Origin: Chloroflexota bacterium
GTDB lineage: Bacteria > Chloroflexota > Anaerolineae > Promineifilales > Promineifilaceae
Length of the DNA stretch: 31,034 nucleotides
Reading direction: 5' to 3'
NCBI GenBank assembly: GCA_024278255.1
Contig: JAJRTP010000396.1
Coordinates: 1-31,034, forward strand
Below, piece after piece: positions 18,703-27,391 of this stretch. The position numbers and the translations under genes are program-made. The notes beneath the pieces were generated by a model. The model was not told the origin of the DNA. It did no database searches and was given only the letters and a program-made list of their open reading frames with translations. The stretch's first letter is position 1, and each line of letters opens with the position of its first letter.

Positions 18703-18784
18703 ACACGGATGACACGGATTGAATGGATAGACGCGGATTTCTTGTTTTATCCGTGAAAATCCTGCAAATCTGTCATATCCGTGT
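18703..18784. repeat. ACGGAT-type inverted-repeat element, copy 2
   Basis: ACACGGAT GACACGGAT...GACGCGGAT on the left; ATCCGTG...ATCTGTC...ATCCGTGT on the right; same layout as 3334-3414. Confidence 0.75.
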
Positions 18785-18836: not shown

Positions 18837-18866
18837 TTTACAATTGCCTATAAGTTGGGGTATAAT
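18837..18866 (+). promoter_or_regulatory. Putative sigma70-type promoter for the STAND cassette
   Basis: TTTACA (18837-18842), 18-bp spacer, TATAAT (18861-18866) in an AT-rich intergenic region. Confidence 0.5.
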
Positions 18867-19000
18867 TTCGCGTAGTATCACATTGAACTTACATTGCAGT
18901 ACCCAAAAAATGAATAAGGGTAAAAATTCTTTAGCATCCTTACAACCATGCGGCTTTTCATCATCGGGATGTGTATCCTCATTTAGAGGAGGAGAAGGAA

Positions 19001-22000
19001 ATGTCCGCAAACGGCAATCTGTTTCGGGGCATCCTAAAGCTAAAGACATTATGTGTGGGTGGAGATTTCAGTAAAACGCCAACTGATCTGCCGTCTACAC
19101 AATTTCCCGGCAATGTCCTGAGGCATACGGACGTGTTTCAATTTTACATTGAGACCAGGTATGATGAAGCGCTAGACATCATCATTGCCAACCGGGATAT
19201 TGACCTGGTTTTTCTGGATGCTGATTATGATTCCCTGACCGAAATCACCACTTTTATGACTCAGGCCAGGGAAATACGGCCGAAATTACCCATCGTATTA
19301 TTTACCAGCGATAGTGATGATAAAATGCGCCACCTCATGCGTGAGGGGGCCACCTGGCATTTTGTCAAAAACTCTGAGGTGATTACGTCCCTCAATTCTC
19401 AAGTACACGACCACGTTTATTCCCCCATAGATTGGCCGGAAATTTTTGTCCAATATGCCAGCGATTCTCTGAAACCCCGCATCGAACCAGGCTTGAGCTA
19501 CACGGATTTGGAAGCGCTTTCCCAGAATCCGGAAGAGCGGTACATTATCAAGCGGTTGTTTGCCGACAGTGATGTGGTTCAGATTTTTCGCATGGATGAG
19601 GGGTTTAGCGGTTCGCGTATTTACACGGTTAAACCGGCGCACCAGCTTAAACGCATTCTGAAAATTGATGTAGCCGACCGGCTGGAAGCGATTCAGGAGA
19701 AACAGGAACGACTGATTCAACCGCGCCTCAACCGGCAGGTAGGGCAAATTCAGGGCAAACTGGTGCGCGGCGAACATCTGGCGGGGGCCTGTTACGCCCT
19801 GGCCGGCTCTTACCGGGACGCCATCACTCTGACCCAGTTTCTGTTGAATCAGAACCGGGTACGCAAAGAGTTGATTGACAAGATTCTGGAGCAGTTACGC
19901 ATCAGCCTGGAGCAGTTGTACGCGGGCAGCTCGGATACGGAACTACGTTATTGGGCGCCCCTCTATGCCCGCGTCCTGCCCACACATTTGACACTGGCCG
20001 ATGCCGTTCTGGTGGAGCCGGATGAGATGGCGGCTGATTTTGTGGTGTCGGCCGAATCGTTTAACACCCTGTCGGCCGTTCCCGGCAATCCGACGCTCCA
20101 GCAAATTAACCAAGCTGCTCGGCAGGGAGAGGAACCATCACTCATTTTGCATGGCTTTGAAGTGGCTGAAGTGGATTCGCGGGCCGGGACGATTTATCTG
20201 CATGACGATCTCATGGCCCGTTATCCGATTTCCTCGCTGCTCAAGGATAAAAACCACCCGATTATGCGGTTTAAGGTGCATTTGCAGGATGCGGATCAAT
20301 CCTGGCTGGCGCATCCGGCTTTCCGGCGGGGTAAGCGGGTGAGTGTGCGGGGCCGGGTGGTGGCTACCCAGGAGACGATCATTGGGGATAATATTACGGA
20401 GGTGACGGGACGGCCGTTTGACTATGACTCCGACGTGCTGGAACTGGCTTCCGGCCGGTTTATCTCCCCCATTGCCAACGTGCGCAGCCTGCTTTGGGAG
20501 GTGGGCCGGGAAGATATGATCGTGCCCATTCCCCAACTGTCGCCGGTGGTGCATGGCGATCTGAATACCAGCAATATCCTGGTGGAGATCAGCGATGAGA
20601 TGCCTCTCTGGCTCATTGACTTTTCCGATGCCCGCCCCGGCCACGTTTATTTTGATCTGGCCAAGTTGGAAGTGGAGTTTCGTACCCACGTCCTTTACCG
20701 CCTGTACAAGGAGATGGTGGACGAGGGCATCTGGGATGTGGACACGGCGACCAAATTTGCTCTGCTGGTGGAAAATGTGCTGATGCTGACGGCCGTCAAC
20801 GATTTCTCCGATTTCATTACCACTCTGCGTGATTACCAGCCGGAATGGTACGACAATTTATACACCCAGTTCCCCCTCTATTCCGAAAACCTGCTCTACT
20901 TCCTCCACTCCCTGCGCCAGATTGCCGAAACGTACAGCCCGGAACGGTTCAAATACCATTATCCGGTAGCGGTCTTTTTCCAGAGCATCTCGGCGCTCAA
21001 ATTTAAGCGGCTGGATGACGCCCCCTGGCATCCCTGGGCCAAACGGCTGGCCCTGTGCGCGGCCGTTGTGGCTGGCAAACAAGCCATCGAAGGTGTGGAT
21101 CGCCCGCCGGAACTGGACGACGTGTACAGCGGGATGCGCCAGCGCAGCGCCTTTGCCGTGATTACGGTAGGCAGCGGCGGCGACCGGAAATATCTGGTGC
21201 AGTGGAATGAAAACTGGAATATGTACAATCTGGTCGGCGGCCGTTTGAATAACGTCAAAGGGGACAAGGATTCCTTTGCCCGGGCCATCCAGCGGGAACT
21301 GCAAGAGGAGTTGGGCCTGGTCAGTCCCAAGGATTACCGTATCGTGCGGGAATATAAGCCAGTCTACGAGCGGCAGTTTTCCCGCCGGGAATTTGTCTTT
21401 AAGGATTATGAGTTCCGTGTATTCCAGATTGAGCTGCTGCCCCGCCATCCCATCACGCCGGAAGAGTATGAATGGTACGCCAACCGCTTTGACACGGAAC
21501 GAGAGAATATTCTGGTGTCGCGGGCGGAGATTGAACGGCTGCGCACGACGGATAATTTGCCCATCTCGGATACAACACGGATGATTTTGCAGGAGTTGGG
21601 GGAGATTACGGCCGTAAGTTCCGACGACATGCTGCTTTCTTTGGAATTTGAACTGGAGAGCGATGAAGTCGTGGTCAGCCGGGGGCGGGGGCAGGTGTTA
21701 GGCCGTTTGACCAATCCTCGCTATGGTGGCCTGGTGGAGAATGTGACGCTGGAAGTGCTGCCGGCCAATGGATACGAGACAGAGCAGGATTCGGCCGTTT
21801 TGCAGTTAGGCAAGCTGAACGCAGGCGACGTCTGCCCCATCTCCCTCTGGTTGCAGCCCAAAGAAAAACATGCCCGCCTGAAACTACGCTTTACCTTTTA
21901 TGATGCCCGGGGCAAAGAATACCGGCAAACGGTAGAAAAAAGCCTGGAATTCAAGACCAATACCCGCGCCCTGTTCCATATTGACAATCCTTACGTTGTC

Positions 22001-23194
22001 GGTAAACCGCTTACCCCGGCCTCTGAAGATTTGTACGTGGGCCGGGAAGATGTGTTCATGTGGATTGAGGAAAATTTGCTGGGTAAAACCCAGCCGCATA
22101 CCCTGATTCTCTACGGTCAGCGGCGTATGGGGAAAACATCTACGCTGTATCAATTAGTGGGCGGCCGGCGGGGCCAGACTATTCGTGAATATCCCGGCTA
22201 CCCCATCTTCCCGGCATACATTGATTTGCAGCGCTTGGCCGGCTGTGACACGCCGGAATTTATGGCCCGATTGAGCCAGCAAATCATCCGCAATCTGGCT
22301 AGACGCGGCATCAAAATCACACCGCGGGAGTCCTGGTCGGCCAATGGCACAATTTTTGGTCAGTTTGATGAATTTCTGGATCGGGTAGAGGAAAAGCTGC
22401 CGCAAAATGGGCTGCTGGTACTGGTGATTGATGAGTTGGAGCAGATGCAGGCGAGTATTGAAAACGGCCGTCTCAGCCCCGATATTCTGCCTTACTTGCG
22501 TTCCCTGATGCAGCATCGTACGCAGTTGACTTTTATTTTGGTGGGAACCAACCAATTAATGGAAGATTATTGGAGTACGATTTTCCATGTGGGCATCAGC
22601 CGGGAAATTGGTTCGTTGAGCCGGGAAGATACGGAACGCCTCATTCGGGAACCGGTTTCGCCCATGATCCAGTACGACGATCTGGCCGTAGACCGCATCT
22701 GGCTGGCGGCACGGGGCCACCCTTATTTCAGCCAGCTTTTGTGCCACCGGCTGATCAGCGCCGTCAATCTGGAAGGCCGCCACAGCAAGATCATCACCAT
22801 TACCGAAGTGCGCGATATGATTAACCTGGTGATTGATGAGGATGACAGCCATCTTCAGCATTTATGGAATGAAAGCAGCCGGGAAGAGCAGTTTATTCTG
22901 GCTTCCCTGGCAGGGACGCAGGAAGTGGGCGAAGAAAATGTATCCCGTTCAGAAGTGTTGTCTCGCCTGCGCGGTGCTTCCATTGAGGATGACACGGTAC
23001 GCATGGCTTTGAACCGGCTGGAAACGCGCCGCCTGGTGACGCGCACCCCGGTGGAACGCCAGATTCAACGCCGGTTATCACAGCCGGGCGGCTGGCAGCC
23101 CACGCTGGTCAGTAAGGATTATGCGTATTCGATTTCGTTTGATTTGTTGCGAAAATGGGTGGCGAAGAAACACCCGTTGGGTTCGCTTTTATAA
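19001..23194 (+). CDS. 1397-aa multidomain protein: REC - kinase/phosphotransferase (TCAD9/APH-like) - NUDIX - Ig-like - STAND/AAA ATPase - wHTH-like
   Basis: RBS GAGGAGGAG before ATG 19001; REC VFLD (19217), LFTS, FVK; GFSGS (19601), LKID, HGDLNTSNILV (20552), LIDF; RELQEELGL (21293); NPYVVGKP, GQRRMGKTS (22115), LVIDE (22421-22435), GHPYFSQLLC. Confidence 0.85.
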   Translation: MSANGNLFRGILKLKTLCVGGDFSKTPTDLPSTQFPGNVLRHTDVFQFYIETRYDEALDIIIANRDIDLVFLDADYDSLTEITTFMTQAREIRPKLPIVLFTSDSDDKMRHLMREGATWHFVKNSEVITSLNSQVHDHVYSPIDWPEIFVQYASDSLKPRIEPGLSYTDLEALSQNPEERYIIKRLFADSDVVQIFRMDEGFSGSRIYTVKPAHQLKRILKIDVADRLEAIQEKQERLIQPRLNRQVGQIQGKLVRGEHLAGACYALAGSYRDAITLTQFLLNQNRVRKELIDKILEQLRISLEQLYAGSSDTELRYWAPLYARVLPTHLTLADAVLVEPDEMAADFVVSAESFNTLSAVPGNPTLQQINQAARQGEEPSLILHGFEVAEVDSRAGTIYLHDDLMARYPISSLLKDKNHPIMRFKVHLQDADQSWLAHPAFRRGKRVSVRGRVVATQETIIGDNITEVTGRPFDYDSDVLELASGRFISPIANVRSLLWEVGREDMIVPIPQLSPVVHGDLNTSNILVEISDEMPLWLIDFSDARPGHVYFDLAKLEVEFRTHVLYRLYKEMVDEGIWDVDTATKFALLVENVLMLTAVNDFSDFITTLRDYQPEWYDNLYTQFPLYSENLLYFLHSLRQIAETYSPERFKYHYPVAVFFQSISALKFKRLDDAPWHPWAKRLALCAAVVAGKQAIEGVDRPPELDDVYSGMRQRSAFAVITVGSGGDRKYLVQWNENWNMYNLVGGRLNNVKGDKDSFARAIQRELQEELGLVSPKDYRIVREYKPVYERQFSRREFVFKDYEFRVFQIELLPRHPITPEEYEWYANRFDTERENILVSRAEIERLRTTDNLPISDTTRMILQELGEITAVSSDDMLLSLEFELESDEVVVSRGRGQVLGRLTNPRYGGLVENVTLEVLPANGYETEQDSAVLQLGKLNAGDVCPISLWLQPKEKHARLKLRFTFYDARGKEYRQTVEKSLEFKTNTRALFHIDNPYVVGKPLTPASEDLYVGREDVFMWIEENLLGKTQPHTLILYGQRRMGKTSTLYQLVGGRRGQTIREYPGYPIFPAYIDLQRLAGCDTPEFMARLSQQIIRNLARRGIKITPRESWSANGTIFGQFDEFLDRVEEKLPQNGLLVLVIDELEQMQASIENGRLSPDILPYLRSLMQHRTQLTFILVGTNQLMEDYWSTIFHVGISREIGSLSREDTERLIREPVSPMIQYDDLAVDRIWLAARGHPYFSQLLCHRLISAVNLEGRHSKIITITEVRDMINLVIDEDDSHLQHLWNESSREEQFILASLAGTQEVGEENVSRSEVLSRLRGASIEDDTVRMALNRLETRRLVTRTPVERQIQRRLSQPGGWQPTLVSKDYAYSISFDLLRKWVAKKHPLGSLL

Positions 23195-23214: not shown

Positions 23215-24537
23215 ATGTCATACATTGTTGGTCATCCTATAAAAAGACCTTCTGATTTTTACGGCCGTTCCTCTCAGGTCGCTCGTTTTTATGAAATTAT
23301 TGGGGGTACTCAGGCCCAGTCTGCCAGCGTTTTGGGTGTGCGCCGGGCTGGGAAAACATCTTTTTTGCAATATGTCGCCCATCGCAGCATCAAAGCCAAA
23401 TACTTGCGTGAGCCGGACAACTACACCATGATTTACATCAACATGTCCACCTGCAAAAAACCAGCCGATTTCTATTACGGCTTGCTGCGCCGCCTGCAAT
23501 ACTCGCTGGGCGTGGCCGAAACCGGCTTTTTGTGGAAAGAATCGCCCCCCAACGCCACCAGCATGTATGACGTGGAGGCATTCCTCTGCCAATTTCCGGA
23601 GCGGCGCATCATTCTTCTTCTGGATGAGTTTGACCAAATTCGGGTAGACACTTTCTCTCAGGAATTTTTGACCGAACTGCGGGCCATGACTAGCGTGCTG
23701 GACTATGATTTGGCTTTTGTCACGGCCTCTTACTGGGATTTGTACTATTTGGGTACCCAAATAGGGCTGCCGCCGACGTCACCTTTTTACAATATTTTTT
23801 ACCCGACACCCATTTACATTCCCGGATTGGAGGAGAGCGAGATTGATACGCTCATCCAAAAACCAGCGGCAGAAGAGGGTTTCCCTTTTTCCGCGGAGGA
23901 TGTGGCGCAGATTAAGCAGTTGGCAGGATCGCTGCCGTTTTTTGTGCAGGCTACGGCCGCTTATTGGCTGCGCTGCCGCAAAAGCGAATATACACCTGAC
24001 CCGGAGCAAGCCCGGCAAATTTTAGTCGGCGAATTGTCGCCTTATTTTGAACAATGGTGGCGCTCTTTTGATAACGGCTACAAAGAAGTGCTGCGCTGCA
24101 TTGCCGATAATCTTGACCTGTCTATTTTGCCTTACAGTCCGGTAGAAGTTCAGGAAGCTGTCCGTATTTTGGGTAATTATGGCATGGTGGTGCGGGAAGA
24201 CGGCCGTCTGTCCATCAACGGCGATATTTTTGTTTTATGGGTGCAGCAGTACGCCCAACTGGCCGAACAAAGACAAACACTTCACATGCCGAATAACGGG
24301 CAAAACAGGCAGAAAAATAACGTAACTGATCCGGCCAAACTGCGTCTGGTCCTGACCGATTATTTCAGTCTGGAAGATTTGCAGGCGCTTTGTTTTGATC
24401 TGGGTCTGGATATTGATGATTTTCCTGGCACCAGTAAGCAGGCCAAAGCCATCGGGCTGATCGAATATTGGCGTAACCGGCGCGAATTGGGTCGTCTTGT
24501 TCAGGCCATTCGCCAGGAACGTGGTGCTATTGTGTAG
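23215..24537 (+). CDS. STAND/AAA ATPase with C-terminal effector-associated domain (EAD7-like)
   Basis: VGHP...FYGR, Walker A GVRRAGKTS (23335), Walker B LLLDEFD, AGSLPFFVQ; C-terminal LRLVLTDYFSLEDLQALCFDLGLDIDDFPG..K..KA..LIEY...R..LGRLVQAIRQER (24328-24534). Confidence 0.8.
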   Translation: MSYIVGHPIKRPSDFYGRSSQVARFYEIIGGTQAQSASVLGVRRAGKTSFLQYVAHRSIKAKYLREPDNYTMIYINMSTCKKPADFYYGLLRRLQYSLGVAETGFLWKESPPNATSMYDVEAFLCQFPERRIILLLDEFDQIRVDTFSQEFLTELRAMTSVLDYDLAFVTASYWDLYYLGTQIGLPPTSPFYNIFYPTPIYIPGLEESEIDTLIQKPAAEEGFPFSAEDVAQIKQLAGSLPFFVQATAAYWLRCRKSEYTPDPEQARQILVGELSPYFEQWWRSFDNGYKEVLRCIADNLDLSILPYSPVEVQEAVRILGNYGMVVREDGRLSINGDIFVLWVQQYAQLAEQRQTLHMPNNGQNRQKNNVTDPAKLRLVLTDYFSLEDLQALCFDLGLDIDDFPGTSKQAKAIGLIEYWRNRRELGRLVQAIRQERGAIV

Positions 24538-24632: not shown

Positions 24633-24702
24633 GCTATTGAGAAGAGGATTATCTCACGGATGTTTTTATATATGCGTGAGGCATTGACAGCGAGGGGAAA
24701 CA

Positions 24703-25050
24703 ATGGTTCCGATTTATCGCAGTGATGGCGAATGGGTGGCTGTTTATGTGAATGGCAACTTGTTTAATATAGATGGAGAATGGATAGGCTATTTGGTGGG
24801 CCGGGAAGTGTATGATACCAGCGGTATGTATCTGGGCTTTTTGAGCAATGATAAGCGTTTGGTGCGAAAACGTTCTTACCATCCTCGGCCCCGGTTGGCG
24901 GTGCCGCCCCGCCCGGAACGACCGGAAATTCCGGCGTCTATGCCCTTGGCTCCTATGTTTGCCTCTTTGCCGCACCAAATTATTGATTTGTTTGAGGAAT
25001 ACCCGGAAAAGTTGATGTTTATTTCTGAAACCCGGCCGGATATGGACTGA
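24703..25050 (+). CDS. Small protein resembling the 4-fold beta-flower family
   Basis: Repeated (Y/F)xxxGxxxG units: IYRSDGEWVA, LFNIDGEWIG, VYDTSGMYLG; Pro-rich C-terminal half; RBS GAGGGG. Confidence 0.7.
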   Translation: MVPIYRSDGEWVAVYVNGNLFNIDGEWIGYLVGREVYDTSGMYLGFLSNDKRLVRKRSYHPRPRLAVPPRPERPEIPASMPLAPMFASLPHQIIDLFEEYPEKLMFISETRPDMD

Positions 25051-25064
25051 TAAACGGAAGAACT

Positions 25065-25101
25065 GCGGAGAATGCAGAGAACGCAGAGAATTGCCAGAGA
25101 A
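25065..25101. repeat. GCAGAGAA-type 9-mer tandem repeat (half element)
   Basis: GCGGAGAAT GCAGAGAAC GCAGAGAAT TGCCAGAGAA; no inverted partner seen nearby. Confidence 0.65.
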
Positions 25102-25137
25102 AATTTGGACAATTCGTGGCTGTTTTTGGAAAACTTG

Positions 25138-25614
25138 ATGATGGAACCGAAACCACCTGGTGAATCTTGTGTAACGTTGACTCAGTTGATGGGGCCGAGC
25201 CATGCCAACACGATGGGTAATGTGCATGGCGGCATCATTATGAAGTTGTGTGATGAGGCGGGCGGCATGGCGGCGGTACGTCACGCGCGGCACACGGCCG
25301 TCACCGTCACCGTAGACTCCATGACCTTCCACTCCCCGGTACACATTGGCAATTTGATGATGGTCACAGCCGAAGTGGTCTGGACGGGACGCACCTCGAT
25401 GGAAACGCGGGTGGTGGTGCGCGCCGAAGACGTGCTGACCGGGGAAATCACCCACACCAATACGGCCTATTTTGTCTACGTGGCGCTGGATGAAAACGGC
25501 CGTCCCACCCCCGTGCCCCCGCTATTGTGCGAAACTGAAGAAGAAAAACAACGCTGGGAACGGGCCGCCCAGCGCCAGGCCTATCGTTTACAGCAGCGCC
25601 AGGAAACCCTATGA
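25138..25614 (+). CDS. Acyl-CoA thioesterase, HotDog fold (YciA-like)
   Basis: ANTMGNVHGGIIMKLCDEAGG, AVTV.VD...F.SPV.IG, GRTSME, A.FVYVALDE.GRP.PVP; start 25138 or 25141. Confidence 0.92.
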   Translation: MMEPKPPGESCVTLTQLMGPSHANTMGNVHGGIIMKLCDEAGGMAAVRHARHTAVTVTVDSMTFHSPVHIGNLMMVTAEVVWTGRTSMETRVVVRAEDVLTGEITHTNTAYFVYVALDENGRPTPVPPLLCETEEEKQRWERAAQRQAYRLQQRQETL

Positions 25615-26747
25615 CCCAACCCAAATCCAAACTCCTTGACATCCTGCTGACCTCACCTGCCGGACAAGTCACATCTTTGCCTGTGCCAGACGTTGGCGTC
25701 GCCCAGATAGAGCCATTCCCCTTTTTAGCTATTGTCAACCAGTACGAGATGAAGCTGGCCCTGGTACTGTCTTTGATCAATCCTCTGGTCGGCGGCGTTT
25801 TGCTGATTGGCCCGCGGGGGACGGCCAAGACAACGGCCGTGCGCGCTTTAGCCGATCTCCTGCCCCACACCCGGCGCAGCCTGTGCGCTTATGGCTGCAC
25901 TGAGGAGATGATTGAAACCTACGGTATGGATGGCGTATGTAAAGATTGCGCCGCCAAATTTGGCTACGGCGAGCCGCTCACTGTCGAGGATAAAGTTCGC
26001 ATCTTTGAACTGCCCCTTAACGCCCGCCTGGATGACGTGGTGGGCGGCATCAATGAACGGCTGGCGCTGGAGCAAAACAAAGTGCGCCTGGAACGGGGTA
26101 TCCTCGGCCACGCAGACCGGCATATCCTTTATATTGATGAGGTCAATTTGCTGGACGACACCATCACCGACGCCATTTTGGATGCGGCGGCGCAGGGCCA
26201 TTACACCGTGCGCCGCGGCCCGCTGAAGATGACTTACCAGGCGCGGATTATGCTCATCGGCTCCATGAACCCGGAAGAAGGCAAGCTGCGGCCGCAGTTG
26301 ATGGATCGCTTTGGTTTACGGGCCATTGTGCGCGGCCTGGAGGAACCGGAACTGCGTTATCAAGCGTATGAACGAGCGTTGGCTTACAAACAGCATCCCG
26401 AACTATTTGCCGCCTCTTACGCCGCCGCCACGCTGGCCCTGGCTGATGATATTCAAGAGGCGCGGGATCGGCTGCCACAGGTCACCATCCAGCCGGAGGC
26501 GCAGGCCTTGGGTCTGGAACTGGTTGCCAGCTTGCAGATTGATTCTAATCGGGCAGAAATCACCCTGTTTGAAGCCGCCCGCGCCCACGCCGCCGCCGAT
26601 GAACGCCTGGAAGTAACCACAGCGGATGTGGAGGCGATAGCCACATTGGCCCTGCGCCTGCGCCAAAGCCCGCATTTGACTCAATTCTTTGCGGAACAGG
26701 CGGCGGAAGATGAAAAGATGCGGGCTGTTTTTGCCAAGAGAGGGTGA
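25611..26747 (+). CDS. Magnesium chelatase subunit I (BchI/ChlI)-like AAA+ ATPase
   Basis: FPFLAIVNQYEMKLAL, GGVLL.GPRGTAKTT, LPLNA..DDVVG, LYIDEVNLL, GSMNPEEG.LRPQLMDRFGL; ATGA overlap with the thioesterase. Confidence 0.88.
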   Translation: MTQPKSKLLDILLTSPAGQVTSLPVPDVGVAQIEPFPFLAIVNQYEMKLALVLSLINPLVGGVLLIGPRGTAKTTAVRALADLLPHTRRSLCAYGCTEEMIETYGMDGVCKDCAAKFGYGEPLTVEDKVRIFELPLNARLDDVVGGINERLALEQNKVRLERGILGHADRHILYIDEVNLLDDTITDAILDAAAQGHYTVRRGPLKMTYQARIMLIGSMNPEEGKLRPQLMDRFGLRAIVRGLEEPELRYQAYERALAYKQHPELFAASYAAATLALADDIQEARDRLPQVTIQPEAQALGLELVASLQIDSNRAEITLFEAARAHAAADERLEVTTADVEAIATLALRLRQSPHLTQFFAEQAAEDEKMRAVFAKRG

Positions 26748-26752
26748 GGGAT

Positions 26753-27391
26753 ATGGCAATACGCAACACGCAATACGCATCACGCATCACGCTGCTTTTG
26801 GGTTTTACGGCCGTATTCATCGGCTATCTCACTGTCTGGCTGCCAGGGCCGGCGGCCGGTTTGCAATTTCTGGGGGTGGAGTTGGGGGAGTGGACTAAGT
26901 TCCTGGGGATGAATACCCGGCGCAATCTGTTTTACCTGCCCCCTATCACCCTGAGCTTGATGCTGTTGACGTTGACTATTGTTTGGGACAGCCGGCGTTG
27001 GCAAACCTGGATTATGCGCGGGCTGGCTGTGGCTTTGGCCTTGCTGGTCTTTCCCGCTTTGGAGGATTTGCTGGGGCCGGTGCGGTCGGAATATTTGCCG
27101 CGGGTGGGCTGGATTGGCCTGACGTTGGTGTGGGCGGCTGTGGTTTCCCTGGTGAGTTGGCGTTGGCGGGAACGGCCGTGGACCACAAAGTTAATGTGGC
27201 TGCTTTTGCTGCTGCTGGGCCTGGCGGGGGCTATCATCCCCACGCAGGTTTATTTGGAGGTACGGCCGTTTGTCGCCAACTTATTGGGTATGTCGCTGGG
27301 TATTGGGCCGGGCGTCTGGCTGAATGGGGCTGGGCATTTGCTGGTGGTTGTGATTAGCGGCGTGCAGCTCTATCACGAATACAGCAGATGA
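26753..27391 (+). CDS. Hypothetical multi-pass membrane protein
   Basis: About 6 hydrophobic segments; ATG 26753 after GAGGG; no family recognised. Confidence 0.75.
   Translation: MAIRNTQYASRITLLLGFTAVFIGYLTVWLPGPAAGLQFLGVELGEWTKFLGMNTRRNLFYLPPITLSLMLLTLTIVWDSRRWQTWIMRGLAVALALLVFPALEDLLGPVRSEYLPRVGWIGLTLVWAAVVSLVSWRWRERPWTTKLMWLLLLLLGLAGAIIPTQVYLEVRPFVANLLGMSLGIGPGVWLNGAGHLLVVVISGVQLYHEYSR
26756..26790. repeat. Heptamer array, 5 units of GCA(A/T)(T/C)AC, inside the 5' end of the CDS
   Basis: GCAATAC GCAACAC GCAATAC GCATCAC GCATCAC, translated as AIRNTQYASRIT. Confidence 0.85.

Follow-up and report, generated by a model that had tools for sequence, protein, structure and literature searches.

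In a 31,034-nucleotide contig of a Promineifilaceae bacterium (Chloroflexota; JAJRTP010000396.1, assembly GCA_024278255.1), which we refer to as the window, we examined a gene called BIG here and the gene that follows it. BIG (19001..23194, + strand) codes for 1,397 amino acids (aa) and joins a receiver-like domain, a TCAD9-type kinase, a NUDIX domain, an all-beta segment, and a STAND ATPase; its neighbor, the partner (23215..24537, + strand), codes for a 440-aa paralogous STAND ATPase that ends in EAD7, a death-domain-like adaptor domain. The pair is an unnamed variant of the two-gene STAND systems that have been predicted computationally, and not a new kind of system. Whether it works as a two-gene hetero-STAND switch of the kind envisaged by Kaur, Burroughs, Iyer, and Aravind is, in our judgment, evenly poised. 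Sequence comparisons indicate that the two genes are old and co-diverging, with an association that predates the split of two Anaerolineae families; that vertical inheritance and strong purifying selection have kept them in a single chromosomal slot; and that they are repeatedly simplified, by loss of either the kinase-NUDIX-beta portion or the partner.

The STAND/NOD module of BIG (21983..23191, + strand) contains the motif NPYVVGKP, Walker A (G1039-S1047), Walker B (1141-1145), R1173, a helical domain, and a C-terminal winged helix, and so has the organization that a first-pass annotation, made by a model from the letters of this DNA, had read as a P-loop STAND ATPase with a helical and winged-helix tail. 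Its Pfam matches are AAA_22 and ATPase_2 at aa ~1015-1186 (AAA_22, 34.1 bits; gathering threshold [GA], 27), with no nSTAND match. The partner starts 21 nt past the BIG stop codon on the same strand, with a GGAG ribosome-binding site, and carries Walker A GVRRAGKTS, Walker B LLLDEFD, and a C-terminal EAD7 (partner aa 376-436, 24340..24522, + strand; Pfam 56.7 bits, above the GA of 32), with nSTAND1 at 24.1 bits falling below its GA of 27.1. The two NTPases share 27% identity over 175 residues (E 6e-7) and have an N-terminal Y-[VI]-V-G-x-P motif in common, and the Walker A Lys (GKT/S) and Walker B DE are intact in all sequences surveyed (17 partners and 24 BIG or short-form proteins).

Several observations support a functional link between the partner and BIG, as had been suggested when 23215-24537 was singled out for co-expression: the partner lies downstream of BIG in 19 of the 19 loci first checked in the family of the window genome (f1), and the two also stand together in a different context in a second Anaerolineae family, the distant clade (f11). 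A complex prediction for BIG aa 995-1397 with partner aa 1-375 gave an ipSAE of 0.59 against 0.00 for the best control; among the calibration pairs, 51 of 78 solved complexes and two of 108 mismatches scored at least this high, and values of up to 0.60 are unreliable. The model weakly suggests a STAND-STAND interface that would run across the Walker A/B faces, the arrangement found in AAA+ or STAND oligomers.

The closest precedent we found is a two-gene counter-invader operon in which both products are built on an nSTAND2 NTPase (Kaur, Iyer, Burroughs, and Aravind 2021, eLife 10:e70394; PMC8195603, 'GT4 domains', Fig. 6C), and for which a toroidal hetero-multimer was predicted, with one product carrying variable effectors, as a computational prediction only. 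BIG and its partner are likewise two adjacent, codirectional genes with STAND NTPase cores, one of them fused to enzymatic 'effector' domains, for which a hetero-multimer is proposed, and a GT4 gene with a GT4-conflict Pfam match lies directly upstream of BIG. The f11 partner matches the nSTAND2 family itself (Pfam PF20702, 71.9 bits), whereas BIG and the partner in the window fall below the nSTAND1/2 gathering scores. Unlike the described system, which has one eroded module, both STAND modules here keep Walker A and B; the effectors are a receiver, TCAD9, NUDIX, and a beta segment on an active STAND rather than GT4 or HEPN; the second protein carries EAD7; and the locus is vertical and syntenic rather than mobile and sporadic. 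The combination had been put forward as unnamed, which holds for PADLOC-DB v2 (zero match) and NCBIfam (no name), whether searched with BIG, its NUDIX part, its kinase part, or standalone NUDIX relatives, but not for its organization, which has this close antecedent. The partner drew only a weak PDC-S27 match in PADLOC-DB v2 (E 1e-4).

Two other groups of systems are instructive. The EAD adaptor networks described for multicellular bacteria (Kaur et al. 2020, eLife 9:e52696; PMC7159879) resemble the present case in that an NTPase switch carries EAD7 at its C terminus, a single genome encodes many EAD7-tagged proteins (TIR, FGE/lectin-like, NACHT, and Roc-COR), and the host belongs to the filamentous Chloroflexota, but differ in that this pair stands without MoxR-vWA or VMAP/iSTAND and shows no diversification between close relatives. 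Domain searches of the genes flanking the pair found no vWA domain, and no MoxR-vWA pair or VMAP/iSTAND third component; a ternary system of the MoxR-vWA type, from which the TCAD name comes, with the downstream AAA+ gene is ruled out, as that AAA+ is ChlI-like and has no vWA among its neighbors. With Avs and NLR-type NOD proteins, BIG shares the placement of enzymatic domains N-terminal to the NOD, but it ends at the winged helix without a C-terminal TPR, LRR, or WD sensor, has a second, paired STAND, and gives no PADLOC match.

A genome-wide scan of the host found about 20 EAD7 domains, that is, 19 besides that of the partner. EAD7 stands at the N terminus of two TIR proteins, one of which also has FGE, and of fusions with FGE-sulfatase, NACHT, and DUF4404; it stands at the C terminus of two LRR-Roc-COR proteins and of another AAA_16/nSTAND6-like ATPase. 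The proteins are encoded on contigs C614, C252, C338, C416, C88, C730, and C180 of genome G000 (loci L046, L051, L047, L055, L048, L045, and L054, respectively), EAD7-TIR being on C614 and C252, EAD7-FGE on C338, and EAD7-NACHT on C416. By domain content this set has the makeup of a full adaptor network of the Kaur-Aravind type. TCAD9 and NUDIX are among the effector-type domains listed for such networks (PMC7159879), and a proposed tie to NTP-dependent conflict systems is borne out at the level of the domain vocabulary (TCAD9, EAD7, and nSTAND).

BIG is a single open frame on the + strand (from a GTG at 18971 or an ATG at 19001 to 23194), with a GGAGGAG ribosome-binding site preceding the ATG. 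All the motifs that the first-pass annotation had placed in one 1,397-aa frame were reproduced upon conversion to residues: D73 (19217), GFSGS at 201-205 (19601), K221 (19661), HGDLNTSN at 518-525 (20552), D540-F (20618), RELQEELGL at 765-773 (21293), GQRRMGKTS at 1039-1047 (22115), and LVIDE at 1141-1145; there is also no transmembrane segment, as it had stated (maximum KD19, 1.19). Two AlphaFold2 models built from 30-sequence alignments (aa 1-700, pLDDT 83.5 and pTM 0.85; aa 696-1397, pLDDT 84.9), taken with the profile searches, confirmed the receiver (CheY fold), the kinase (TCAD9/APH type), the NUDIX fold, the all-beta nature of the next segment, and a STAND ATPase with nucleotide-binding, helical, and winged-helix domains; PDB profile searches by sequence gave marginal matches only (E 0.09-0.4). 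Misassembly of the fusion is ruled out by the 115 full-length homologues recovered in a word-indexed search, which are 40-92% identical and come from independent assemblies, including megabase-size contigs.

The kinase (aa 196-700, 19586..21100, + strand) is of the TCAD9/APH-like, small-molecule type, with a G-loop (201-205), K221, E236, H518-G-D520, N525, and D540-F. Pfam TCAD9 (PF19974) covers aa 197-565 at 71.5 bits, above the GA of 40, with APH nested at 516-556. An alignment of 30 orthologues (40-92% identity), from which the conservation of the kinase, NUDIX, and receiver sites was read, shows little or no variation at G201, K221, E236, H518, G519, D520, N525, and D540-F541, with the decaying copy P0105 as the sole exception, and the kinase core is the most conserved part of BIG (71-79% identity within the family). 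The kinase-like domain reported initially is therefore upheld on profile, catalytic residues, and fold. The closest folds include sugar kinases, the best being 5-methylthioribose (MTR) kinase, along with NahK. BIG conserves the Brenner motif HGDxxxxN, the DF(S) Mg site, the G-loop, and the Lys-Glu pair of the APH/choline-kinase/MTR-kinase group, but departs from that group in having a ~170-residue alpha/beta insert between the kinase lobes (aa ~331-500) and in being embedded between a receiver and a NUDIX domain.

Full-text literature searching on TCAD9 found no functional study, and we examined the domains with which its relatives are fused. Among the 62 nearest TCAD9 proteins that are not orthologues, Pfam found EAD7 in nine and Response_reg in eight; TIR, vWA, Pkinase, and AAA_16 occur in three each, and nSTAND1, FGE-sulfatase, PYNP (nucleoside-phosphorylase-like), and nucleotide cyclase in two each. 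Exhaustive scanning recovered further variants, among them a Ser/Thr kinase-receiver-TCAD9-NUDIX protein adjoining a TIR-beta-propeller gene and a recombinase, a NUDIX-TCAD9 protein (the reversed order), a receiver-TCAD9 protein, and a receiver-TCAD9-nucleoside-phosphorylase-like protein from Poribacteria. We note that this last, 1,330 aa long, is followed on its metagenome contig (L071, 4188-13045) by a 1,625-aa open reading frame joining domains of RNA polymerase beta (Rpb2) and beta-prime (Rpb1), with genes for sigma-54 and a sigma-54 activator close by.

The NUDIX-fold domain (aa 713-870, 21137..21610, + strand) matches Pfam NUDIX at aa 713-814 (25.4 bits; GA, 21.1), and its fold matches the NadM ADP-ribose pyrophosphatase domain, so that its identification from RELQEELGL at 21293 stands. 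The box reads G746-G747-x7-D755-x9-[R/N]765-[E/K]766-L-x-E769-E770-L-G772. E769, E770, and G772 are conserved, the EE pair being nearly invariant, and the window copy has the complete R-E-L-x-E-E-L-G; R765 is replaced by Asn in the distant clade, and many orthologues have Lys or Gly in place of E766, the 'RE' Glu that corresponds to the general base of MutT. Because the Gly-to-acid spacing is also noncanonical relative to GX5EX7REUXEEXGU, the domain may be a nucleotide-binding sensor rather than a hydrolase; going by these residues, hydrolysis is possible but not assured. The next segment (aa 882-986, 21644..21958, + strand) is modeled as all-beta with about nine strands (AlphaFold2 pLDDT ~80-90) and is the least conserved part of BIG, at 47% identity within the family and 18% to the distant clade. 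Searches of Pfam (E<=5) and of ESM Atlas features gave no fold family for it, and whole-model fold searches were dominated by the ATPase; of its description as Ig-like, the beta-rich character holds, whereas the Ig fold is plausible but drew no match.

The receiver-like domain (aa 12-142, 19034..19426, + strand) has a (beta-alpha)5 CheY fold in which D73/D75 end beta3 and K123 follows beta5, both conserved, and T102 is retained as Thr or Ser in most orthologues. Response_reg scores 19.1 bits on the N terminus, below its GA of 30.2, and OKR_DC_1_N is likewise subthreshold. Nearly all orthologues have Gly20-Gly21, followed by a variable residue, in place of the Mg2+-binding acidic pair expected after beta1, so that canonical Mg-dependent phosphorylation is unlikely; judged by its residues, the domain looks like an atypical or pseudo-receiver. 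The early reading of a receiver with Asp, Thr, and Lys was thus right about the domain and incomplete about its site, and the phosphorelay input proposed with it runs against the missing acidic pair.

BIG is narrowly distributed. Among 401 genomes of the class, representing 62 sampled families, it occurs only in f1 and one f11 genus (2 of 62 families), and it is absent from the other family of the window's order. Roughly 14 of 41 f1 genera carry BIG, with the short form in one genus besides, and the subset of f1 that has the full-length gene follows genus lines (14/14 genomes in g29, 6/6 in g19, and 9/9 in g9, for example), with one such gene per genome examined. A universal housekeeping gene is ruled out by this occurrence in two of 62 families and about one-third of f1 genera. 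Homologues with taxon-bearing source names are all from Chloroflexota (Ardenticatenaceae, Promineifilaceae, and other Anaerolineae) and are annotated merely as phosphotransferase, AAA ATPase, or NUDIX; a HMMER scan of 1.84 billion representatives with aa 1-900 retrieved only about six full-length clusters at 50% identity.

All f1 loci examined, whether with BIG or the short form, have the same slot, in the order polyprenyl synthase, FMN-dehydrogenase, epimerase, Wzy-like, GtrA, GT4, [slot], BIG, [partner], thioesterase, ChlI-like ATPase, membrane protein, and ACP. The accessory slot upstream of BIG is empty in the window. In the g9 clade (L042, L058, L059, L060, L065, and L066) it is occupied, 25-90 nt ahead of BIG, by a MraZ-like gene of 141 aa (Pfam MraZ, E 2e-25), and in genomes G021 (L061, 11599-12066) and G066 (L068, 6221-6688) by a standalone NUDIX paralogue that shares 47-51% identity with BIG aa 714-869 and, in G021, contains a single in-frame TGA. 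After the 19 loci first checked, the partner was found downstream in three of 11 later f1 loci and was missing in eight (g9 clade, G021, and G069), six of which have the MraZ-like gene upstream.

In f11, BIG and its partner are adjacent between unrelated flanks (UvrA/GDH/QueG and PNP/FtsW/PBP), which could reflect one probable transfer or an ancient split; the f11 partner keeps the STAND part (32% identity, E 2e-51) and has a different C-terminal tail. In genus g3 and a related metagenomic contig, the same slot holds a short form of ~450 aa, in which the same receiver-like domain is fused directly to the STAND module, or the STAND module stands alone, with no kinase-NUDIX-beta portion; the 350-aa partner that comes next lacks EAD7. 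In a STAND tree the short forms group with two f1 long-form lineages at 98% support, and the f11 long forms fall outside this clade, although the tree came from a quick search and its outgroup branches are long; on this branching an insertion of kinase-NUDIX-beta into an ancestral short gene is disfavored, and an internal deletion is the likelier origin of the short form. The partner tree is congruent with the BIG tree.

As a working model of the hetero-STAND switch, we propose that NTP-dependent hetero-oligomerization of the two STAND modules would unite the N-terminal enzymatic arms, and that this assembly would activate the TCAD9 kinase, whose substrate would be a small molecule, probably derived from ribose or a nucleotide. 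A related nucleotide (an ADP-ribose derivative, for example) would be hydrolyzed, or merely sensed, by the NUDIX domain; the receiver-like domain would act as a phosphorylation-independent regulatory or dimerization input; and clustered EAD7 tails would recruit EAD7-tagged effectors (TIR and others) encoded elsewhere in the genome. Of the two opposed chemistries suggested by the first-pass annotation, phosphoryl transfer accords with the invariant kinase site, but nucleotide hydrolysis is doubtful given the noncanonical box and variable 'RE' Glu.

A number of observations weigh against the switch model, in which oligomerization, substrate, direction of signaling, and biological role are all things that we infer. 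The receiver lacks its acidic pair and many NUDIX boxes their 'RE' Glu; BIG ends without a C-terminal sensor and has no PADLOC match; EAD7 is missing from the partners of g3 and the distant clade; and BIG can persist alone, as in the eight f1 loci without a partner. The f1 locus is a fixed one adjoining envelope-polysaccharide genes. In comparison with an orthologue from the same genus (96% identical), BIG has a dN/dS of 0.038 as a whole and of 0.01-0.11 in its individual domains, and there is no diversification between close relatives, which is atypical for conflict systems; the initial suggestion of a new conflict hub is weakened by this vertical inheritance, fixed locus, and strong constraint.

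These same features favor the strongest rival, which we think improbable on balance and nonetheless take seriously, that the pair is a domesticated, lineage-specific physiological regulator: the receiver-STAND core and the partner would control envelope glycan synthesis, cell division, or filament development, with the TCAD9-NUDIX arm acting on a sugar or nucleotide-sugar intermediate. It accounts for the slot beside polysaccharide genes, the single copy per genome, the low dN/dS in every domain, the MraZ-like gene directly upstream in the g9 clade, and the FtsW and PBP genes downstream in the distant clade; the sugar kinases MTR kinase and NahK are among the closest kinase folds, and NUDIX enzymes often act on NDP-sugars. 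It fits poorly with the patchy occurrence, since a gene confined to two of 62 families and ~14 of 41 f1 genera is dispensable, and with decayed copies, two of them frameshifted and split over two or three frames (G090, C12:45902-50095; G131, C10:11737-15211) and a third, P0105, with the G-loop lost, HGA for HGD, and RRGLGL in the NUDIX box. The f11 pair, moreover, has no polysaccharide genes, ~300 nt and a separate promoter-like site lie between GT4 and BIG, and EAD7 and the fusion partners of TCAD9 (TIR, vWA, and EAD7) point to a conflict or apoptosis-like network.

Distinctly less probable, in our estimation, is that the NUDIX and receiver domains are both noncatalytic sensors and the kinase is the sole output, the NUDIX domain binding a nucleotide alarm signal (such as an ADP-ribose-type TIR product) that licenses STAND assembly and the kinase, so that information flows from the EAD7/TIR network into BIG. 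NrtR is an example of a NUDIX domain used as a nucleotide sensor. The irregular box with its Lys or Gly for the 'RE' Glu, retained within an otherwise kept fold and EE pair, is consistent with this, as are the receiver without an acidic pair, the kinase core as the most conserved part, and the related STK-REC-TCAD9-NUDIX protein that adjoins a TIR-propeller gene. E769 and E770, however, occupy positions that are metal ligands in active Nudix enzymes, and their near invariance fits catalysis as well as binding; the window copy has the full box, and the standalone NUDIX paralogues beside BIG in G021 and G066 could be enzymes or sensors.

A purely metabolic reading, in which BIG is a bifunctional nucleoside or ribose salvage enzyme with an ORC/Cdc6-like ATPase as scaffold or chaperone and a functionally unrelated STAND next door, would suit the MTR-kinase and NadM fold matches, the TCAD9 relative fused to a nucleoside-phosphorylase-like domain, and the PNP_UDP_1 gene two genes downstream in the distant clade, but it is very improbable, because the short orthologues keep the receiver-STAND protein and its partner and drop the enzymes, which makes the ATPase pair the core and not an accessory, and also in view of a partner that co-diverges with BIG and accompanies it into a new context, of TCAD9 relatives fused to EAD7, TIR, and vWA, and of a narrow, patchy distribution unlike that of a salvage pathway.

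Returning to the hetero-STAND switch, we speculate, with little confidence, that receiver-TCAD9-NUDIX is a self-contained module for making, reading, or destroying a ribose- or ADP-ribose-derived second messenger, which in this lineage came to sit between an atypical receiver and a hetero-STAND, 'apoptosome-like' assembly to which EAD7-TIR proteins are recruited. If so, the pair would be a stably inherited cell-fate switch of a filamentous bacterium linked to NAD-derived nucleotides, and the natural receiver-STAND short orthologues would be a built-in domain-deletion control. TCAD9, EAD7, and nSTAND1/2 have been assigned to immune or apoptosis-like networks of multicellular bacteria by computation only, and a constrained, single-copy pair with kinase and NUDIX on one STAND, EAD7 on the other, and EAD7-TIR candidates in the genome is a clean test case, to which natural variants without the enzymatic arm, without the partner, or without the adaptor add value. 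That a 'conflict-type' architecture can stay vertical at a fixed locus for long bears on the question of defense versus development in filamentous bacteria, and the identity of the TCAD9 substrate would give a function to a whole Pfam family. Every part of BIG is already catalogued; its architecture is unnamed and experimentally tractable, and its evolution is unusual for a 'conflict' system. New here are the co-divergence of the partner, the atypical receiver and NUDIX sites, the constraint at a fixed slot, the short orthologue, the census of TCAD9 fusions, and the host EAD7 set.

Within the ~300-nt gap between GT4 and BIG, a promoter-like site (TTTACA-18-TATAAT, 11/12; 18837..18866, + strand) lies ~135 nt upstream of the BIG start, which suggests that BIG and its partner are transcribed separately from the GT4 gene; it is a consensus match only, and the region has no more such sites than chance would give. 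RNA runs were searched for the locus and none contains it, the best DNA run holding 0.23 of the sampled words. Immediately before this promoter-like site (18703-18784) are three direct copies of AC[A/G]CGGAT (18703, 18712, and 18731) followed by two inverted copies, ATCCGTG (18749 and 18777), which may be an operator or a short repeat element; g9-clade relatives have the MraZ-like gene in this same gap. Downstream of the partner, a 268-aa open reading frame (24649-25455, - strand) opposite the thioesterase gene has no family match and is probably not a gene. The ChlI/BchI-like AAA+ ATPase (25611-26747) scores 278 bits with TIGR02030, below the equivalog cutoff, and 24.9 bits with bpMoxR, below the 27-bit cutoff; it has no adjacent ChlD/vWA gene and is followed by a gene for a 215-aa membrane protein (the two together spanning 25611-27391), and both are conserved downstream across the family.

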